64,000 nt of DNA from a virus (Duplodnaviria; Caudoviricetes), in the IMG/VR virus record IMGVR_UViG_3300028886_000037, positions 160,001-224,000 of that record; one strand, 5' to 3'. Positions 4,952-49,233 of the stretch are shown piece after piece. A model generated the notes under the pieces. The model was given only the letters and a program-made list of their open reading frames with translations, did not search any database and was not told where the DNA came from. The position numbers and the translations under genes are program-made. Each line of letters starts with the position of its first letter. The stretch's first letter is position 1.

Positions 4952-5119
4952 CTATGCGTACCACTTCTTGATGTCGTGGAACGCCTTTACGATCGAATCT
5001 TCGCCGAGTTGTTCGAGAATGTCGCACAGCAGATTGTCAGCTCTTACGTGTGCGACTTCAGTGTCGGAATTATAGCGAAGCTTGATGAGTTCTTCGAGTT
5101 CACGTTGGAATTTTGTCAT
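4952..5119 (-). CDS. small phage protein (AHxxADxLLC...KWYA), not in ORF track
   Basis: 55-aa manual translation; AAGGACC RBS and early promoter at 5153-5183. Confidence 0.75.
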   Translation of the reverse strand: MTKFQRELEELIKLRYNSDTEVAHVRADNLLCDILEQLGEDSIVKAFHDIKKWYA

Positions 5120-5217
5120 AGTTCTGGTCCTTTTGTGAAGTTTGACATAAACAATATAGGTATTTCCAGAGAATTTGTAAACGGTATAAATAAACTAAAT
5201 TGAAATTGAGTGATATT

Positions 5218-6015: not shown

Positions 6016-7191
6016 TTACATTCTGTCTACAGCATCTTGGTAGATCTTTTCGATCTCGCCACGGAGAATGTCGCCGAAGACGGGACCAGGCTCATAGCCC
6101 TCTGCCTTGAGACGGTCAGAGATTGCAGTCTGGTCGATCTCGATCTTAGCGAGCTGCAGAGCTTCGGGAATCCTCATAGCCCAGTCGGGAAGTTCACGCT
6201 GATCGAGAATGCTGATGAAAGTTTCCCAGTCTCCCTTGACGAACTGAACCATCTCGGTCCAGCTCATCAGTTCCTCTCGATTGGACAAGAATCTCTTATA
6301 CCACTTCAGCTGCTTCTTCTCTTCTCTCGTGAGCAGGCAGAGCTCTGCCTGACGATCCCACTGCTGACTGAACATAGTCATCATCACGAAGACAGAAGTC
6401 TTGCCGAAAGAGGGAGCCCTGAGCGCTGCGACATGAAGAGCGTGCAGATCGATCCATTCGAACATGGGGCAGACGTCCGTGATTCCAGTCTTGCTCAGAA
6501 TGTTGAGGAACAGCTGGAATCCGCACTCTTTGTTCTTGACAGCAGAGATCTCTTTGCGGATTCTCTCGTTAGAGAGACCCTTAGTCAGAGCAGCGTTGTC
6601 CTTCATAGCCTTGTACGTGTCGGGCTCGATCTCGTACCCGAAGTTGACAGCGAAACGTGCGCCACGGAGAATCCGGAGAGAGTCTTCCTTGAATCGCTTG
6701 TCGGGATCACCGACAGCACGCAGAACGTGATCTTCGATGTCGTGAATGCCGTCGAAAGGATCGATGATGTTTCCTTCGCCATCCATGCCCATAGCGTTGA
6801 TCGTGAAGTCACGACGGGCAGCGTCTTCCTTGAAGTCTCTCGTGAAAGCCACAGTGTCTGGATGACGACCGTCAGAGTAGTCGCCGTCAGTACGGAACTG
6901 AGTCACTTCGAACGGATAGCCGTAGATGTTGAAGACCAAGATAGTTCCGTGAGCTTCGCCGTTGTTAGACTCAGTGCGGAAGTTCTTCTTGAGCGCGTCG
7001 ATTGGCATGTTAGTCGCTATGTCCACGTCGTGCAGATCCAAGACGTTAGTCTGGCCGAGCTCGACGCGAACCATGTCTCTCACCGAGCCGCCGACGATGT
7101 AAGCTTCGTGACCGTAGTCGCGGATTCTCTTGCAGAGATCCATAGCGCAGTTGAGCGCAGAAGACTGGAAGCGGTTAGTGTTGATTTTCAT
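6016..7191 (-). CDS. cca: CCA tRNA nucleotidyltransferase / poly(A) polymerase family
   Basis: YIVGGSVRD, DVDIAT, RRDFTINAM, EDSLRILRGARF motifs; start reset to ATG 7191 (RBS, promoter 7224-7253). Confidence 0.92.
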   Translation of the reverse strand: MKINTNRFQSSALNCAMDLCKRIRDYGHEAYIVGGSVRDMVRVELGQTNVLDLHDVDIATNMPIDALKKNFRTESNNGEAHGTILVFNIYGYPFEVTQFRTDGDYSDGRHPDTVAFTRDFKEDAARRDFTINAMGMDGEGNIIDPFDGIHDIEDHVLRAVGDPDKRFKEDSLRILRGARFAVNFGYEIEPDTYKAMKDNAALTKGLSNERIRKEISAVKNKECGFQLFLNILSKTGITDVCPMFEWIDLHALHVAALRAPSFGKTSVFVMMTMFSQQWDRQAELCLLTREEKKQLKWYKRFLSNREELMSWTEMVQFVKGDWETFISILDQRELPDWAMRIPEALQLAKIEIDQTAISDRLKAEGYEPGPVFGDILRGEIEKIYQDAVDRM

Positions 7192-7280
7192 TAGTTGGTC
7201 CTCTTGTTGAAGGTTACGCTTCAAATATATGAAAATCCTGTCTGTTTGTAAATAGCAGTCTTCCATTTTTAGTAATTTTT

Positions 7281-7625
7281 AGTCCGACATTTTAAGCCGT
7301 AGCGCTGGAACGAAGCACAACTCAATGATGCTGTCGGTAAGCGTGCGCCGTTCGCGATGGAACTCCTCTCGCACGAATGAACGAACATGGAGTATCGAAG
7401 CACGATTGTAGCTATTCGTGCACACAGCCGCCATTAGCGCCTGAAGATGTAGCTGGAATACAGGATGACCGATCCATAAGCTTCAGGGTGAGTCTACTCA
7501 TAAGTCGACGGGCGAAGGAGTCAGCAAAAGACGTTCTTCAGAGGTCAGAGACAGTGAGATTCCTGAATAGGCTCATTGTCTCTGGGCTCTGGATGTAGCA
7601 AAAGAAAGCTCAGCTCCGCTTCGCA
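7281..7625 (+). ncRNA. putative structured non-coding RNA (family not recognised)
   Basis: No credible ORF; multiple nested stems, with G-U pairs favouring the + strand; followed by terminator. Confidence 0.55.
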
Positions 7626-7630
7626 ACAGA

Positions 7631-7659
7631 AAAACCTCAGGATCAGATCCTGAGGTTTT
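7631..7659. terminator. bidirectional intrinsic terminator
   Basis: AAAACCTCAGGATC-A-GATCCTGAGGTTTT near-perfect palindrome. Confidence 0.8.
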
Positions 7660-7678
7660 GTAAATTTATCGTTACGTG

Positions 7679-8242
7679 TTATGCGATGTCGGTGAGCTTG
7701 TCCCAGCCTTCGGAATGCTGCTTTGGATATGCGTCCTGATATTCCTGGTAAGTCTTTCGCAGATCGTCGTAGTGACGATCGCGGACTTTCACGTCGAGAT
7801 CTAAGACGATCGGTTCAGAGACCTTGATGAGCTTCTTGAAGGACAGAGAGCCGTAAGTCGTGTAGTCGTCGCAGTGACGGATAGCCGTGCGTTCTGCTTC
7901 CTTCTGAGTCTTAGCGTAGACTTCGTCAGTGCGGACAGAGCAGCCGAGCTGCGGGTTGTAGCGGTTGTATTCATAGATCCAGCGGCGTAGCGGATTCTTG
8001 ACCTTGCGCTTCCTTTCACGCTTCGGCTTCTCTTCTAAGCCGTTGATGTTGTCGGCGTTAGCGCAGTTAGCGCCCTTCTCGTTGAGCGGATAGCATCCGA
8101 CTCCCTTGATGATGAAGCAGAGATCTTCGTCGTGTTCGGATACGATCTCAGCGTTGTACTTCTTGAGAAGCTTTGCGAGATCCTTGCGGAAGTCGAGATT
8201 GTCGTTGAGGGTCGGGTGCTGGGAGCGGTCGAGATTGGTCAT
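7679..8242 (-). CDS. hypothetical early protein
   Basis: AAGGACCAAAACTATG RBS; promoter 8275-8306. Confidence 0.75.
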   Translation of the reverse strand: MTNLDRSQHPTLNDNLDFRKDLAKLLKKYNAEIVSEHDEDLCFIIKGVGCYPLNEKGANCANADNINGLEEKPKRERKRKVKNPLRRWIYEYNRYNPQLGCSVRTDEVYAKTQKEAERTAIRHCDDYTTYGSLSFKKLIKVSEPIVLDLDVKVRDRHYDDLRKTYQEYQDAYPKQHSEGWDKLTDIA

Positions 8243-8474
8243 AGTTTTGGTCCTTGTTTTAAGTTTGTATAACAAATATAGGTAAAACTATGAGAAATCT
8301 AAACCCTTTGGATTGAGATTTTCTTGATTTTCTTGACTGTTAGAAGATCCAGATGCCGATCAGGCACAAGATGTTTGATTCTGTACTTTACACTCTGATC
8401 GGGTTGATAGCTTCTGATGATCTCTCGATCTCTGTAGTACTCATCTAATACTTCGTCAGTTAAACTTCCCATAA

Positions 8475-8699: not shown

Positions 8700-9050
8700 C
8701 TATCTCTTACGCTTATCTCTCACTAGGTTTGCGTACTCGACCTGCTGTCCAAGGAACTCATACAGTTCCCCGCGTTCTACAGACTTGATAGAGACTTCCT
8801 TCGGTGCCGCCTTTACGAGCTTCATGCGGATGTCTTCATAGTACTGACGATATTCGATCGTAGTCGAGTTGATGATCATGTCCCAGCGGAATCCGCCATT
8901 TGCTCTTATGCGCTGCTCTTCGTCGTTGAGCTTCGAGTAAGCGATTGCCGTGAATTCCTCTTTTCCACCGACATAGTTAGTGACCTTGATCTGGTCTGGA
9001 TAGTCGGTCATAGCGTCAAGCGCAGTCTGCTTTGCCTCTTCGTAAGTCAT
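8700..9050 (-). CDS. hypothetical phage protein (MTYEEAK...), in frame with upstream TnpB
   Basis: Own AAGGAAGG RBS and ATG at 9050; phage-like codon usage. Confidence 0.7.
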   Translation of the reverse strand: MTYEEAKQTALDAMTDYPDQIKVTNYVGGKEEFTAIAYSKLNDEEQRIRANGGFRWDMIINSTTIEYRQYYEDIRMKLVKAAPKEVSIKSVERGELYEFLGQQVEYANLVRDKRKR

Positions 9051-10367
9051 TATGCCTTCCTTGTGTGAACTGTTCACCGCCTTTAGGCTGTGAGCTTCTA
9101 GTTTTCGCTTCAACGGAGCCACTTGTGCTAACCCAGTAAAACCGGGAGGCATAGAGGCGGCTACCTCAGCGGAGGCGTGTTCCACGCACTCAGCACGTTT
9201 AGTCGTGCCAAACAAGAGTACATTACAGGCGGAATGCCAATCCCTCGGCTTAGTATAGCCGCAATCGCAGTGATATGTGCGTTCATCCAAGCCAATGGTA
9301 TTTACAGCACCGCAAACTGGGCACATCTTGGTAGTCGGTAACCACTTTGACAGCACGAATGCACGGTCTGTCTTAACAAGCATCTTGATTTTCTGCTTGA
9401 GAGCACCCATACACGAATGCTGAACTTGCTTACCAAACCAAGTCTGGCTCCAGTTCTTAATCTGTTCGTCCTGTATGTAGATGACATCATAATTAGACAC
9501 AAGGTCGTGATAGATTTTGTTGCAGATGTCCTTGCGGATATTCGCAACATGTTCATGCTCACGGGCAAGCTGCTTCCTACAGTTCCACCGCCGCTTGGAG
9601 TCCTTCTCTTTCTTGTGCCTGTTGAGCATCTTGCTCAGGTACTTTAGGTACTCGGTTTCTTGCACTTTGCAATCGTAGGTCTTGTTGTCCGATGTCGTTA
9701 TCGTATTCTTGATGCCGAAGTCCAGACCGACATTCTTTCGAGTGCGGTTTCTCTGCTCCTTCGGCAACATAGTCGTGAGTTTTACATAGTAGCCGGACGC
9801 CTTGCGGATTAGCTTGGCATCTGCTATCTCGTATTCCTCAAACTCTATCTGATGCAAGCCGTTCACCTTCAATTTCCTGAAGCCAGGAATGGTGATATGG
9901 CTTGCATCCAAAATCCTCGTGAAACCTGTAATGATGGGAATGCAGTTCACTTCGCTCTTGAACTTCAACGCGCCGACCTTCATCCCCTTGGCTTTCGCCT
10001 TGGCAAGGTTGACAATATCCGTCTTCTTCTGTGCTACAGTAGCACGATGAAGCACCGATGGTAATGTGACCGTATCCGTTATCGGGTTCTTGCCCTTGTC
10101 GTAGTGGACTACATCCTTGTGTTCGGTGTACTTGTAGTCGAATATACTGTTATCTGGATTGTCCTTCGACAATGACAACATATCGTTGATTACCCACTTC
10201 GCTTCCTTGAAGCACTGGGACAGCTTCTGGAATGTTTCCTTCGGATTGTGCCTTATGGAAACCTTCAGCTCGAACACTCGGCATATCTGCGTCTTACGAC
10301 GGGCATGAGTCTCTGCCATGCTCGCCTTAATCTTTGCCTTTGTATCTTCGCTTCTTACTGCTTCCAT
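8700..10367 (-). CDS. tnpB: RNA-guided endonuclease TnpB (reads through into downstream gene)
   Basis: VGLDFGIK (RuvC-I), IYIQDE (RuvC-II region), CPVCG/CDCG zinc ribbon, RDWHSACN (RuvC-III). Confidence 0.9.
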   Translation of the reverse strand: MEAVRSEDTKAKIKASMAETHARRKTQICRVFELKVSIRHNPKETFQKLSQCFKEAKWVINDMLSLSKDNPDNSIFDYKYTEHKDVVHYDKGKNPITDTVTLPSVLHRATVAQKKTDIVNLAKAKAKGMKVGALKFKSEVNCIPIITGFTRILDASHITIPGFRKLKVNGLHQIEFEEYEIADAKLIRKASGYYVKLTTMLPKEQRNRTRKNVGLDFGIKNTITTSDNKTYDCKVQETEYLKYLSKMLNRHKKEKDSKRRWNCRKQLAREHEHVANIRKDICNKIYHDLVSNYDVIYIQDEQIKNWSQTWFGKQVQHSCMGALKQKIKMLVKTDRAFVLSKWLPTTKMCPVCGAVNTIGLDERTYHCDCGYTKPRDWHSACNVLLFGTTKRAECVEHASAEVAASMPPGFTGLAQVAPLKRKLEAHSLKAVNSSHKEGIMTYEEAKQTALDAMTDYPDQIKVTNYVGGKEEFTAIAYSKLNDEEQRIRANGGFRWDMIINSTTIEYRQYYEDIRMKLVKAAPKEVSIKSVERGELYEFLGQQVEYANLVRDKRKR

Positions 10368-10772: not shown

Positions 10773-10870
10773 ATTTACTCCTTTTGCCTAGTTTGTAATC
10801 AAAATATACGAAAGTTTCTATATTTCGTAAACCGATCATGCTATAAATAAACTGATTATTGAGGAAATTT

Positions 10871-12891: not shown

Positions 12892-13202
12892 TATGCTTCC
12901 TCCTTCTTGGGTTCGGTAGTTTCGACGCCTTCTGGAAGATCATACATGAGCGTGTAGATAGCGATCACAACGTCGTCGTAACCGTTATTGTGACGATCTA
13001 CGGTGTAAGTCGTAACCTTGATGTCCTTGACGATCGCGTTGTTCTTTTCGATCCAACGGTTGATCTTCTTGTCGATCTCCTTCTCGGCGACGTATGGATG
13101 ATTTCTGTCTACCTTAACTTTCTGTTTCCAGTCGTCGGCGTTGTTGTGTAAGTCGTTGCCGCAGCAGTTGGAGAGACAGAACTGAAAGTTCTTGATTTTC
13201 AT
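12891..13202 (-). CDS. hypothetical early protein (MKIKNFQ...)
   Basis: Start reset to 13202 by AAGGACACC RBS and promoter 13235-13267. Confidence 0.75.
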   Translation of the reverse strand: MKIKNFQFCLSNCCGNDLHNNADDWKQKVKVDRNHPYVAEKEIDKKINRWIEKNNAIVKDIKVTTYTVDRHNNGYDDVVIAIYTLMYDLPEGVETTEPKKEEA

Positions 13203-13263
13203 AGTTGTTGGTGTCCTTGTTGAAGTTACGCCTATAATATACGTATTTTCAAGAGAATCGTAA

Positions 13264-45862: not shown

Positions 45863-47368
45863 TCACTTGATGACCTCATAGCGCTTGGAAAGCAGAGTTT
45901 CCTTCAAGACTTCGAACGGATCGAGCTTGTTAGAGAGCGCCATGTTGAGCACGTTCTGGCTGAAGCCAGAGAGGAGCTTGAGACCATACTTGTTCTCCTG
46001 AAGCGGAACTGCGTTGGTGCGAGAGTTGACGTTCCAGAAGACCATGCCCGGAAGATCGTAACCTTCTGCCTTGTACTTCTGACGGATGGACTCGAACACG
46101 GTCGGCAGATCCTTCGTGGAAGTTCTCTGCCAGCTGTAGCAAGAGCAAGTAGTTGCAGAGTCGAACTCCATGTCGGAGATGATCAGCACATCCGGGATCT
46201 GGTCCTGCTTCATGTGATTGCTCTTAGCCACGTTCAGGATGAGATCCATAGTGGCCTCGATGTCAGTGTTGGAGCAGTCTGCTTCTCGGTAAGCCAAGTT
46301 CATCTTGTCTCGAAGAGTCATCTTCTGACCGAACTTCACGAGCTTCGGCTTGTTACCGAAGGTGATGAACTCGTTCTCGAAGCCAGGAGCAGCGTGCTCA
46401 GAGCAGTAGATTGCGAGAGCAGTTGCGACGTCGAGCGCATGGACACTAGTACCGCCGACCGGGCATTCCATAGAGCCAGAGCCGTCGCGAACGACGATCA
46501 TCGGCTTGGTCATCTCGATGGACTTCAGGTTCTTCCACATACCCTCGAGCGCCGGATCGACGGTAGAGCTGTATTCTCCAGACTGACAGCGGTACTTGTA
46601 TACCACTTCGTGCGGGAAAGCAGCAGAAGCGTTGATCTTGGCTTCGCCCTTGGTTAGCTTACCGAGGAATTCACGACGACGAGCTTCGTCATGCTTGAGG
46701 AACGCGTCCTTGTACTTCAGGTTAGCATGAGACGGAACAGCTTCGTAGTTCACGTCGCTCCATTCGTTCTTACATAGCTTGACTTCGATCACATTCGAGT
46801 AAGCGCGAAGCTTGGAGAGAGTCTTACGATATTCCGACGGCTTCATACCGAGGAGTGCGCAAAGCTTGTTAGCCTTAGCGACCGTTTCCTTGGAGGAAGT
46901 GTTCACAGACGGCATCCACTTAGCGAGCAGCGAGATCGGCTTTCCGGCCTTCATATCGGCGAGATCGATGTCGAGACGTTCCTTGATTAGTTCCACGACT
47001 TCCTTCTCGACAGCGGTGCCGAGCAGTTCAGTCACGATGTCCCAGCGAGAGTAGTCCGGGATGAACTTGATCAACCACGGGTACTTCGGCAAGACGTTCT
47101 TGACGAGGATCTTGAACAGACGGCGCTCGCCGAGACCTTCACGAACGTCACCCGCATAGAACATCCACTTGATAGCGAGTTCCGGGGTTTCTGCGAAAGC
47201 CTTCAGAAAGTCAGACAAGATAGTGCCCTCGTCCGCAGTGCGGTAAGACGCTACCTTGTAGTTCATATCCAAGAGGGCGTGGCCAGAGGTTTCATAACCG
47301 ACACCACCGTTCTCGGTGAGAGTCTTGTTATTCTTGAGGATCTTTTCCATTTTGGAATAGAATGACAT
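45863..47368 (-). CDS. DUF2828-family TROVE-like/vWA domain protein
   Basis: TENG, DVREGLGER, LLAKWMPS, DGSGSM (MIDAS), ISDMEFD, FWNVN, SGFS; start reset to ATG 47368 (AAGGAAG RBS). Confidence 0.85.
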   Translation of the reverse strand: MSFYSKMEKILKNNKTLTENGGVGYETSGHALLDMNYKVASYRTADEGTILSDFLKAFAETPELAIKWMFYAGDVREGLGERRLFKILVKNVLPKYPWLIKFIPDYSRWDIVTELLGTAVEKEVVELIKERLDIDLADMKAGKPISLLAKWMPSVNTSSKETVAKANKLCALLGMKPSEYRKTLSKLRAYSNVIEVKLCKNEWSDVNYEAVPSHANLKYKDAFLKHDEARRREFLGKLTKGEAKINASAAFPHEVVYKYRCQSGEYSSTVDPALEGMWKNLKSIEMTKPMIVVRDGSGSMECPVGGTSVHALDVATALAIYCSEHAAPGFENEFITFGNKPKLVKFGQKMTLRDKMNLAYREADCSNTDIEATMDLILNVAKSNHMKQDQIPDVLIISDMEFDSATTCSCYSWQRTSTKDLPTVFESIRQKYKAEGYDLPGMVFWNVNSRTNAVPLQENKYGLKLLSGFSQNVLNMALSNKLDPFEVLKETLLSKRYEVIK

Positions 47369-47679
47369 TTGAGTTACTTCCTTCGGTTCAAAGTTGACGA
47401 GATGGAATTTGATTGTGCGAACCATGCATAAAAAAAAATTGCTGTGACCATCTCTCGTTTTGTGTTCTACAATATAGAAAACTTTTGCGGATCTGTAAAT
47501 AGTAAACTTTATTTTACAGAAGATCGATCGTCGGCTGGACTAGTTCAGTGCTGCCGTTCGGACGCACCAGAACACCAGCTTCGACATAGTTGTTCTCGTC
47601 CTTTATCTGGTACTGATGGATCATGGAAACCCAACCAGTCTTAGTGATCTTTACTCCATTGAGTTCGTTCGTCTTTCTC

Positions 47680-48834
47680 TTATTCGTCGTTGTCGCCATC
47701 GTTGTCTCCTTGTGATTTGAGTTCTTCTACTGCGAACTTGAAGACGAGATCGTTGATCTTCCTTCCAGTCGCTAAGTTGATTGCCAGGCAAGCGTATCTC
47801 TTGCCCATGATTTCCACAGCCTTCTCGTATCGCTCACGGCCTTCAAGATTCAATAGCTCAGCAGCAGAATCTTCAGCCTTAAATTTGATCTCTTCGCATT
47901 TACGTTCAAGTTTATCAGCGTATTCACGCATATCCCAGAGCTCTTCCGGAATCATCTTTTTGTACTCTGGCTCTACTATCAATGCTTCTTTATCGAAGTG
48001 AGCACGGATGTCCTTCTTAGAGATCGCAGACATCATCTTGAACTTCTCTAGATATTCTACGCCCTTGATCTTCATCTTGAACCCGGACGAGAATGTCACT
48101 ACGAATCCCTCGTGATCTACGTCAAGCTTCTTAGCCTGTTCGATCATCTTCTCCATCGAGTCGAAGTAGATCATTTCAGAGTAACGGATGTCCAGCTTGT
48201 AAGCGAGATCCGCGATCTCGACCATCTCTGCCTCTGTGTGATTCTCGTCGAAGAATCCCAACAGAACCAAGCCCTCGTAGTCGTAGTGACATACGTGCGG
48301 ATCTTCGTTGGAGATGATCTCGAAGCAGTAAGTCCAGTCCTTGTCCAAGTGCAATTCCTTTCGGTCATTGTCGATCTTAGTGTCGAACCAGTTCTGAGCC
48401 CACTTAGCCTGATCTGAGTCGAAGGATCCAGCAGTCTTGATGATCCACTTATCCTCGTAGTAGAACAAGATTCCGAGCGAGCCGTCAAGCTTGTCCATAG
48501 CACGGAAGTTCTTCGTGATCCTCGGCTCAAACCCGTGTCCCAGTCTCGTGAGAGTTTCTCCGAGCTTAGTGAGACGCATGTAGCCGTCATCAGTAGTCAC
48601 GTCGTAGATCTCTTCGTAGTTGAAGAACTTGTTGAACGGATGAGCGATGATGTCGCCCGTAGACTTATCGAACACGATGCCACGGCACTGGAGAGTGATC
48701 TCGTCCCAAGCGCCGTCGTATACGGTCTGTCGAGAGTACTTGAAGCCGACAAGCTTTCCGTCAGCAGACTCGTGCTTGTCGAGCCATCCGAGATCTGCAT
48801 ATTCTAAGCACTTTTCAAGAGTTAATTCGTTCAT
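47680..48834 (-). CDS. rnlA: RNA ligase 1 (T4 RnlA-like)
   Basis: CRGIVF, PFNKFFN, KLDGSL, FEII, EGFVV, KIK. Confidence 0.9.
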   Translation of the reverse strand: MNELTLEKCLEYADLGWLDKHESADGKLVGFKYSRQTVYDGAWDEITLQCRGIVFDKSTGDIIAHPFNKFFNYEEIYDVTTDDGYMRLTKLGETLTRLGHGFEPRITKNFRAMDKLDGSLGILFYYEDKWIIKTAGSFDSDQAKWAQNWFDTKIDNDRKELHLDKDWTYCFEIISNEDPHVCHYDYEGLVLLGFFDENHTEAEMVEIADLAYKLDIRYSEMIYFDSMEKMIEQAKKLDVDHEGFVVTFSSGFKMKIKGVEYLEKFKMMSAISKKDIRAHFDKEALIVEPEYKKMIPEELWDMREYADKLERKCEEIKFKAEDSAAELLNLEGRERYEKAVEIMGKRYACLAINLATGRKINDLVFKFAVEELKSQGDNDGDNDE

Positions 48835-49233
48835 GCTATTTCCTCGCCTTTCCACTCGAGAACCGGAGTGGTAGAGTGTGAGTAGGGATCCGGGTTCGGT
48901 TCAATTGACAGATTTTGTCGGACCTCTTTCTCGACTACTTCAGCAGCGATACGCTTGATCATGTCGTTCAAGGACTCGTTCTTAAGAGCGTCGTAGCGAG
49001 CCTGCAAGTCCTTTTCACGTTGGAGAAAGAACTTCTTCTGTTCTTCGAGCTCATACTGCATGCAGCGGAGAGTCTCTTCGGTCAATACGGAAGCGAGCTT
49101 ATTCGCACGATCGATGCTGATCTTGAGGTGTTCTCGTAAGAGAAATGCGAACATCGGAGTTTTCATAGTAGTGGTCCTTGTTGAAGTTACATATACAATA
49201 TAGGCATTTTCGGCCTATTTGTAAATAGTGAAA

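Follow-up and report, generated by a model that had tools for sequence, protein, structure and literature searches.

A cow-rumen-2 RNA gene in a large T4-like rumen phage: the catalogued motif as the middle of a larger RNA with predicted long-range pairings

The stretch of DNA analysed here (the window, 64,000 nucleotides) covers positions 160001–224000 of a 247,923-bp IMG/VR virus record judged 98% complete, and belongs to a T4-like rumen phage of ~248 kb (G000 in the genome comparisons). Nearly all genes of the window lie on the minus strand. Two of them, a CCA-adding enzyme gene (6016–7194, minus strand; PolyA_pol head domain, E-value (E) 5e-30; phrog 'tRNA nucleotidyltransferase', where tRNA stands for transfer RNA, E 3e-56) and an unknown 198-codon gene (7679–8275, minus strand), are separated by a gap of ~480 bases that holds no conserved reading frame. 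The gap carries a gene for a structured RNA on the plus strand, convergent with the 198-codon gene, and this RNA is genuine and a further member of a catalogued family, cow-rumen-2 (Rfam RF02947). Its predicted whole transcript, of ~380 nt, would span 7283–7662 (plus strand), with conservation starting at ~7286–7296 and stopping before a terminator.

An earlier reading of this DNA from its letters alone (the sequence-only reading) had described an unclassified non-coding RNA. An Rfam scan places its core in RF02947, with a match at 7394–7500 (plus strand) of 98.2 bits (gathering score 66; E 1e-19) that covers positions 1–106 of the model. RF02947 is the sole Rfam family matched in the whole window, and it is matched on the plus strand only. 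The hallmark elements of the family are all present at 7400–7497: a hairpin with a UAGC loop, the AGCCGCCA linker, and a long arm with AUGUAGC, ACAGGAUGACC, UAAG and GUAA. The ruminant-gut habitat is also common to the catalogued motif and the RNA described here.

Scanning IMG/VR with the most conserved loop sequence returned 45 loci, and a scan with the 5′ domain alone returned 59, of which 24 were new; altogether ~80 homologous loci were found in rumen phage contigs of this database. All 24 homologous loci passed through an Rfam scan scored above the RF02947 cut-off (71.6–112.8 bits). In the alignment of homologues, conservation extends outside the 106-nt model to a 5′ block (7303–7350) and a 3′ block (7560–7583). 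Because conservation continues on both sides of the motif and its 5′ domain is sufficient to recover homologues, the catalogued motif is just the middle of a larger RNA, carried by large T4-like phages of the ruminant gut. Family members range from 300 to 660 nt. Whereas cow-rumen-2 was catalogued at 106 nt with no assigned function or carrier, the RNA of this phage flanks it with a 5′ domain and a 3′ arm and adds four predicted long-range pairings, beyond what a covariance model can hold.

The motif reportedly goes back to the supplementary data of Weinberg et al. 2017. The literature searched on structured RNAs of phages and the rumen, which did not cover that supplement, contained nothing on a larger form of cow-rumen-2 and mentioned the motif just in the Rfam 15 list of revised structures, its own structure having been revised with R-scape (PMC11701678). 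Neither a blastn search of GenBank phages nor a search for related loci with the CCA-adding enzyme as query returned a match.

The folding check proposed by the sequence-only reading was run, and the locus folds with a better energy than its shuffles (z −3.76, with 0 of 100 shuffles as good). The comparative test was performed on 36 distinct core sequences, with shuffles and partners slid by 1–3 columns as controls. The tested structure is paired in 92.9% of cells compared with 73.4% in shuffles, cells changed on both sides number 239 compared with 67, and none of the slid-partner controls exceeds 46% paired. These double changes also bear on the idea that the locus holds no RNA gene, and would instead encode a small protein or act at the level of DNA. 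An ATG open reading frame (ORF) of 73 codons does exist on the plus strand (7377–7598); it is not kept as a frame in relatives, and helices that maintain their pairing through double changes fit an RNA and not codons. ORFs of at least 60 aa occur in just 7 of 38 homologues of the locus, on varying strands and at varying positions, so that the earlier description of a non-coding stretch holds, and a protein or DNA-level element is so improbable as to be practically negligible.

The 5′ domain (7298–7347) is made of three helices. H1 (7298–7300/7345–7347 and 7302–7306/7340–7344, with A7301 bulged) has five covarying pairs and 50 double-change cells, H2 joins CGA (7311–7313) to UCG (7334–7336) with invariant bases, and H3 (7314–7317/7329–7332, loop CAACUCAAUGA) was read from homologues. 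The H4 hairpin (7349–7357/7369–7379, with an 11-nt loop at 7358–7368) comes from the minimum free energy fold, and its closing helix covaries. All seven pairs of the H6 hairpin (7400–7405/7416–7421) covary, as do all pairs of the long arm, in which H7 (7440–7446/7481–7487 and 7435–7438/7492–7496) encloses H8 (7454–7456/7474–7476 and 7458/7473). The junctions of the long arm are invariant (AUGUAGC at 7447–7453, UAAG at 7477–7480 and GUGA at 7488–7491), and in total ~25 unpaired junction bases are invariant or almost so.

Compared with this structure, about half of the stems first proposed pair with wrong partners. CCTGAAG/CTTCAGG (7440–7487) corresponds to H7, every pair of which covaries, and the 13-bp hairpin of the 3′ arm is equally real. 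The stem GCACGAAT/ATTCGTGC (7371/7421) took the wrong partner and the wrong GCACGA copy, its place being occupied by the conserved H6. The inner TGTA/TACA and GGAT/ATCC hairpins find no support either; H8 forms there instead, with a loop used by two pseudoknots. Finally, CCGACA/TGTCGG (7284/7337) is possible in this phage, but it clashes with H2 and H3 and shows no compensation in relatives. Other arrangements were considered and rejected. A sarcin–ricin-like loop in H8 is discarded by its 'bulged G', which covaries as a Watson–Crick pair (alignment columns 71/87). For the H3 loop, a partner in the 3′ tail does not keep a consistent register among relatives, and the same is true of the UCGA that follows H7 as a partner for the strand ahead of H6.

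The 3′ arm (7512–7624) comprises two outer helices, a 13-bp hairpin and a pair of A-rich words. The outer helices, GCGAAGGAG/CUCCGCUUCGC and UUCAGAG/CUCUGGA (GCGAAG/CTTCGC and TTCAGAG/CTCTGGA in the DNA), are predicted from the folding energy of this single sequence. The 13-bp hairpin (7546–7558/7572–7584) has counterparts of quite different sequence in other lineages, namely GACAGUAAG/CUUACUGUC, CUGUUUAAG/CUUAGACAG, GUGCUUG/CAAGCAC and AAACUUCAG/CUGAAGUUU; automated search for this hairpin across relatives was unreliable. It is flanked by the twin words AGCAAAAGA (7523–7531 and 7597–7605). These words are alike within each RNA, with AGCAAAAGA twice here and AAACAAAGA twice or CCAAAAG twice elsewhere (L026, L064, L069, L081, L068, L012, L047), and across lineages they vary in parallel, not as complements. 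Such a pattern suggests a common partner or a repeated local motif. When viral sequences were scanned for the AGCAAAAGA pair, 118 chance matches and no family member came up.

Beyond these helices, four long-range pairings are predicted, of which PK3 and PK4 are strongly supported by covariation and PK1 and PK2 moderately. PK4 would pair ACUCC of the H4 loop (7362–7366) with GGAGU (7389–7393). At least 4 bp can form between the H4 loop and the 7-mer preceding PK3 in 28 of 38 representatives, through 18 different word pairs that include UGUAG/CUACA, AUUGC/GCAAU, GGUAC/GUACC and GACGU/ACGUC. The loop-restricted test alone was significant for this pairing, an unconstrained partner search being not significant. 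A pseudoknot ACTCCT/AGGAGT had been suspected from the start, and its 5′ half stands; its 3′ half was most likely misplaced, since comparison gives GGAGU at 7389–7393 and not 7517–7522. PK3 links UCG (7395–7397) to CGA in the H8 loop (7470–7472), with 94% of cells paired and varied pair types (16 GC, 13 UA, 3 AU and 2 CG at the first pair; 25 CG, 7 UA and 2 UG at the second).

PK2 joins CAGGA of the H8 loop (7461–7465) to UCCUG of the 3′-hairpin loop (7561–7565), either as a pseudoknot or as a kissing contact. It is paired in 91% of cells and is compensated to GGU(U)/(A)ACC in the clade of L064, L069 and L073, with the variants GGAA/UUCC in L065 and GGAG/UUCC in L079; L080 is uncompensated. 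PK2 and PK3 together probably replace the GG/CC mini-hairpin that the RF02947 model draws in the H8 loop. PK1, an RNAalifold prediction, pairs AGCC (7426–7429, within the invariant AGCCGCCA) with GGCU (7570–7573). With 97% of cells paired it is almost invariant; L068 provides a compensatory change (UGCC/GGCA), L011 an extension (AGCCC/GGGCU) and the L015 clade a break. C7572 and U7573 double as innermost pairs of the 3′ hairpin, and in many relatives the GGCU pairs locally, in GCCUAU/AUAGGC covarying to GUCUAG/CUAGGC and GUCUAAUG/CAUUAGGC. To judge from these sequences, PK1 may alternate with a local hairpin of the same GGCU.

Together, the four predicted pairings tie the RNA into a compact core. 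The 9-nt strand 7389–7397 bridges the H4 loop, through PK4, and the H8 loop, through PK3; the H8 loop additionally touches the 3′-hairpin loop through PK2, and the invariant AGCC of the H6–H7 linker joins GGCU at the foot of the 3′ hairpin through PK1.

Large and intricately folded RNAs of bacteria and phages are rare and, once understood, have usually proved to be ribozymes, ribonucleoprotein cores or, lately, RNA cages. The latter precedent raises the idea that the RNA assembles by itself into an ornate, RNA-only particle like ROOL or GOLLD, with PK2 formed between molecules and copies or four paralogues building a ring or cage. PK2 could indeed be a contact within one molecule or between molecules; it joins two hairpin loops, a geometry workable in the second arrangement. 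A large, intricate fold, a phage carrier, a rumen origin, an occasional position beside tRNAs and the lack of a conserved protein neighbour all agree with such a particle. ROOL and GOLLD are likewise large multi-pseudoknot RNAs of unknown function, often carried by phages or prophages and in some cases next to tRNA genes, and ROOL was first seen in the cow rumen (Weinberg et al. 2017, PMC5737381). A recent cryo-EM preprint reports that both form nanocages (10.1101/2024.12.08.627333). Yet the RNA has no sequence or model similarity to either (neither Rfam model is matched at the gathering threshold, nor at E ≤ 10), the two known RNAs are larger (~580–800 nt), and the paralogues within one genome all have the same H8 loop, hence no sign of specific hetero-pairs. 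A self-assembling particle thus appears unlikely.

The same core invites comparison with catalytic RNAs. A new ribozyme could be, for instance, an RNA-processing enzyme for the tRNA or RNA metabolism of the phage, with the invariant junction bases as its active site. Large ribozymes typically possess such a core, with several pseudoknots and ~25 invariant nucleotides left unpaired, and the AGCC/GGCU pairing followed by UUAU presumably resembles the outer part of helix P4 of RNase P RNA. Bacterial RNase P RNA also has such a pseudoknot, AGCC/GGCU(UAU), near its 3′ end, is of similar size, and would match the tRNA-gene association seen in some phages. The comparison relied on helices P1–P3, the bulged U of P4, the conserved regions CR-I and CR-V and the P4 sequence of E. 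coli: here P1–P3 and the bulged U are absent and the conserved regions are missing or reordered. No RNase P, group I, group II or small-ribozyme model matches at E ≤ 10. RNase P RNA itself, prompted by AAAGUC...GGCUUAU, was rejected with no model match at E ≤ 10 in 7150–7720 nor at E ≤ 5 in 11 homologous loci. There is no room for P1–P3 upstream, where the promoter abuts the 5′ domain, and L068, which has GGCA yet keeps AAAGUC, contradicts a P4-like pairing between the 5′ AAAGUC and GGCUU. No substrate or cleavage site is evident. Nothing in the tests run shows a ribozyme or a decoy, both of which had been offered as functions, and a ribozyme seems to us decidedly improbable.

Other known RNA classes were tried and set aside. 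A group I intron finds no Intron_gpI match, and the locus has promoter and terminator flanks and unrelated neighbour genes. The RNA of the signal recognition particle (SRP) and 6S RNA have no model match even at E ≤ 10. The resemblances that suggested group I, SRP and CsrA-sponge readings, GAUAUAGUCGGA (Tetrahymena intron), GAUGUAGCUGG (E. coli 4.5S RNA) and ACAGGAUGA (a CsrA site), brought no model matches; for a CsrA-type protein site, moreover, a change of GGA to GGU is compensated in the pairing partner, which favours RNA–RNA pairing. ARAGORN calls no tRNA or transfer-messenger RNA (tmRNA) in the window, and with the RNase P result this agrees with the original remark that tmRNA, RNase P and tRNA signatures are lacking.

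Signals for transcription frame the RNA. In most homologues a TTTACA-N17-TATATTTG element stands 7–10 nt upstream of the first conserved base of the RNA, and a promoter-like stretch of the window (7246–7280, plus strand; TTTG at 7246–7249 ... TAATTTTT at 7273–7280) aligns with it. The second box of this element fits what we take to be the TAnnTTTG form of Bacteroidota promoters, which hints at the phylum of the host. Downstream lies an intrinsic terminator that could serve both directions (7631–7660), made of an A run, a 12–13-bp hairpin and a U run, and terminator hairpins also stand 3′ of the RNA in L067, L068, L081 and L011. In relatives, a separate T4-type late promoter, TATAAATA, precedes whichever gene comes after the RNA. 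The upstream element of the relatives, the separate TATAAATA and the 3′ terminator argue for a transcription unit of its own, and three lines assign the RNA to the plus strand: the upstream promoter conserved in relatives, the terminator, and an Rfam match confined to one strand. The proposal of a structured phage non-coding RNA on the plus strand, followed by a strong terminator of its own, has been borne out. The argument then given for this strand, that G–U pairs favour it, does not extend to the family, whose base pairs leave the strand unfixed (38 G–U compared with 32 A–C cells).

The carriers are T4-like phages, with genes for the baseplate hub, the tail tube, Gp23, UvsY and RNA ligase 1 among the neighbours. 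The flanking genes vary by lineage (baseplate hub, tail tube, head closure, Rad50-like and others), and among 102 ORFs flanking 26 distinct loci no recurrent RNA-related family was found. While the present phage has one copy, complete phages of 415 and 424 kb (G001 and G002) have four dispersed, diverged copies each. Helices and peripheral domains vary between these copies and one type has another 5′ domain, but the core loops are kept in all. In 185,579 prokaryote genomes, matches occur only in contigs of metagenome-assembled genomes from goat and yak gut; these contigs are most likely phage DNA placed in the wrong bins, and so give no host assignment. Among them, contigs of 170–190 kb from goat gut, binned as Methanobrevibacter (loci L084, L085, L087 and L088; JAFQXD010000042.1, JAFRFB010000097.1), hold two copies of the RNA each and are probably mis-binned T4-like phage genomes.

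Because the flanking genes vary, a terminator and a convergent gene follow the RNA here, and two complete phages hold four dispersed and diverged copies, the RNA probably acts in trans, and not as a leader or a gene-bound guide. A cis element would be an extended leader, a processive antiterminator or a structured RNA that primes replication, acting on the adjacent DNA or genes. Such a role would accord with the many AT-rich relatives in which the RNA lies just upstream of co-oriented late structural genes, and with a copy number that increases with genome size. It conflicts with the strong terminator and the convergent gene that the RNA meets in this phage, with the terminators that follow it in several lineages, and with downstream genes that vary and have their own TATAAATA promoter. 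We hold a cis element to be very improbable.

As for what a trans-acting RNA might contact, some observations point to tRNAs. The H6 loop has the family consensus Y-U-N-R-C-A-A, usually YUAGCAA, on a stem of 6–7 bp. The anticodon loop of the tRNA-Ala(AGC) that the phage itself encodes, UUAGCAA, equals this consensus; the likeness to a tRNA anticodon arm is confined to this 7-nt loop and its stem, the RNA having no D, T or acceptor arm. Each of the five genomes tested has genes for both a CCA-adding enzyme and a T4 RNA ligase 1 (Rnl1). The RNA adjoins the CCA-enzyme gene in the present phage. An Rnl1–CCA pair is found 1.5 kb downstream of the RNA, on the same strand, in the 415-kb lineage (G001/G003), in the order RNA, 108-aa unknown protein, SLT transglycosylase, RNA ligase 1 and CCA-adding enzyme (L027 7463–11480 in G003, and L030 in G001). 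In L065 and L072 the RNA follows an array of 17–18 tRNA genes.

The RNA would act in trans as a folded particle, whose knotted core would keep the ~25 unpaired and invariant bases (AUGUAGC, UAAG, GUAA, GCCA) in a pocket of fixed shape, and whose H6 U-turn loop and twin A-rich words would face outward. From the H6 loop likeness, the adjacent CCA gene, the downstream Rnl1 and CCA pair and the tRNA array, our best guess for the target is tRNA or the translation apparatus, a tentative one that we would not be surprised to see fail. A bolder proposal, which we find rather more doubtful, is that the full-length RNA represents an undescribed class of large phage RNA with a four-pseudoknot core that is catalytic or binds a ligand or protein, acting on tRNA or the translation machinery. 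In that case the anticodon-arm look-alike might engage an enzyme or a nuclease that handles A34 tRNAs such as tRNA-Ala(AGC). The partnership with RNA-repair proteins that the sequence-only reading had imagined is weakly suggested at most.

Taken as a whole, the locus is best explained by a free-standing non-coding RNA gene of the cow-rumen-2 family at 7283–7662 (plus strand), with a knotted and trans-acting product, an explanation that we consider somewhat probable. Several points weigh against it or against the tRNA link. The expression of the RNA, both of its ends and its timing are inferred. The promoter match of the window is weak and was not called by the sigma-70 scan, and the pairs of the family, as said, do not fix the strand. 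PK1 competes with local GGCU pairings and has just the one compensatory change. CCA or Rnl1 genes occur near the RNA in just 2 of ~38 lineages, and not in G002 or G004, and the tRNA array, found in one lineage only, is a thin link. The H6 loop of the window, UUGUAGCUAU, departs from the anticodon-loop pattern, and an ordinary U-turn would be enough to account for the Y-U-N-R-C-A-A loop.

An orphan 106-nt motif turns out to be the heart of a 300–380-nt RNA with a predicted four-fold knot, of which giant rumen phages retain up to four ancient copies; if the bolder proposal on its function is true, these would be four specialised versions maintained by the largest T4-like phages. PK1–PK4 offer concrete base-pair predictions that are directly testable. 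Beyond the catalogued motif, the present analysis contributes strong covariation for the bridges PK3 and PK4, the competing GGCU pairings, the exclusion of a Ro60-like partner, a partial link to tRNA-repair genes and the anticodon-loop resemblance.

The excluded partner is a Ro60-like DUF2828 protein, which is present in G000 and absent from the complete, four-copy G001 and G002. In the window its gene stands beside a T4-type RNA ligase 1 gene (45863–47425 and 47680–48855, both on the minus strand; G000 206583–207317 and 208055–208690). A guide RNA of the TnpB or IscB type was also rejected. A TnpB/Cas12f-like protein of 555 aa (OrfB_IS605 and a Cas12f1-like TNB domain; phrog 'transposase', E 1e-44) is encoded at 8700–10367 on the minus strand, opposite to the RNA and 1 kb from it with three ORFs between, and no transposase or TnpB family is recurrent among the 102 ORFs flanking the homologues. 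This gene appears unrelated to the RNA.

The tRNA array of the phage lies outside the window on the minus strand (L212, G000:148000–160000). It gives 19 ARAGORN calls, which include tRNA-Ala(AGC) with A34, a tRNA with the stop-reading anticodon UUA (5020–5092) and one with an odd anticodon loop (6099–6175). A34 tRNAs also occur in the arrays of L065 and L072, namely Gly(ACC), Ala(AGC) and Arg(ACG). Close to the RNA and outside it, the sigma-70 scan found an early promoter of the divergent CCA-enzyme gene (7224–7252, minus strand; TTTACA-N17-TATATT). Minus-strand early promoters of the form TTTACA-N17-TATATTTG recur at 7194–7252, 13200–13260, 5150–5180 and 10800–10830, and a conserved leader, TGAAG(C)GTAAC(C)TTCAACAAG, comes after the promoter at the first two of these sites.

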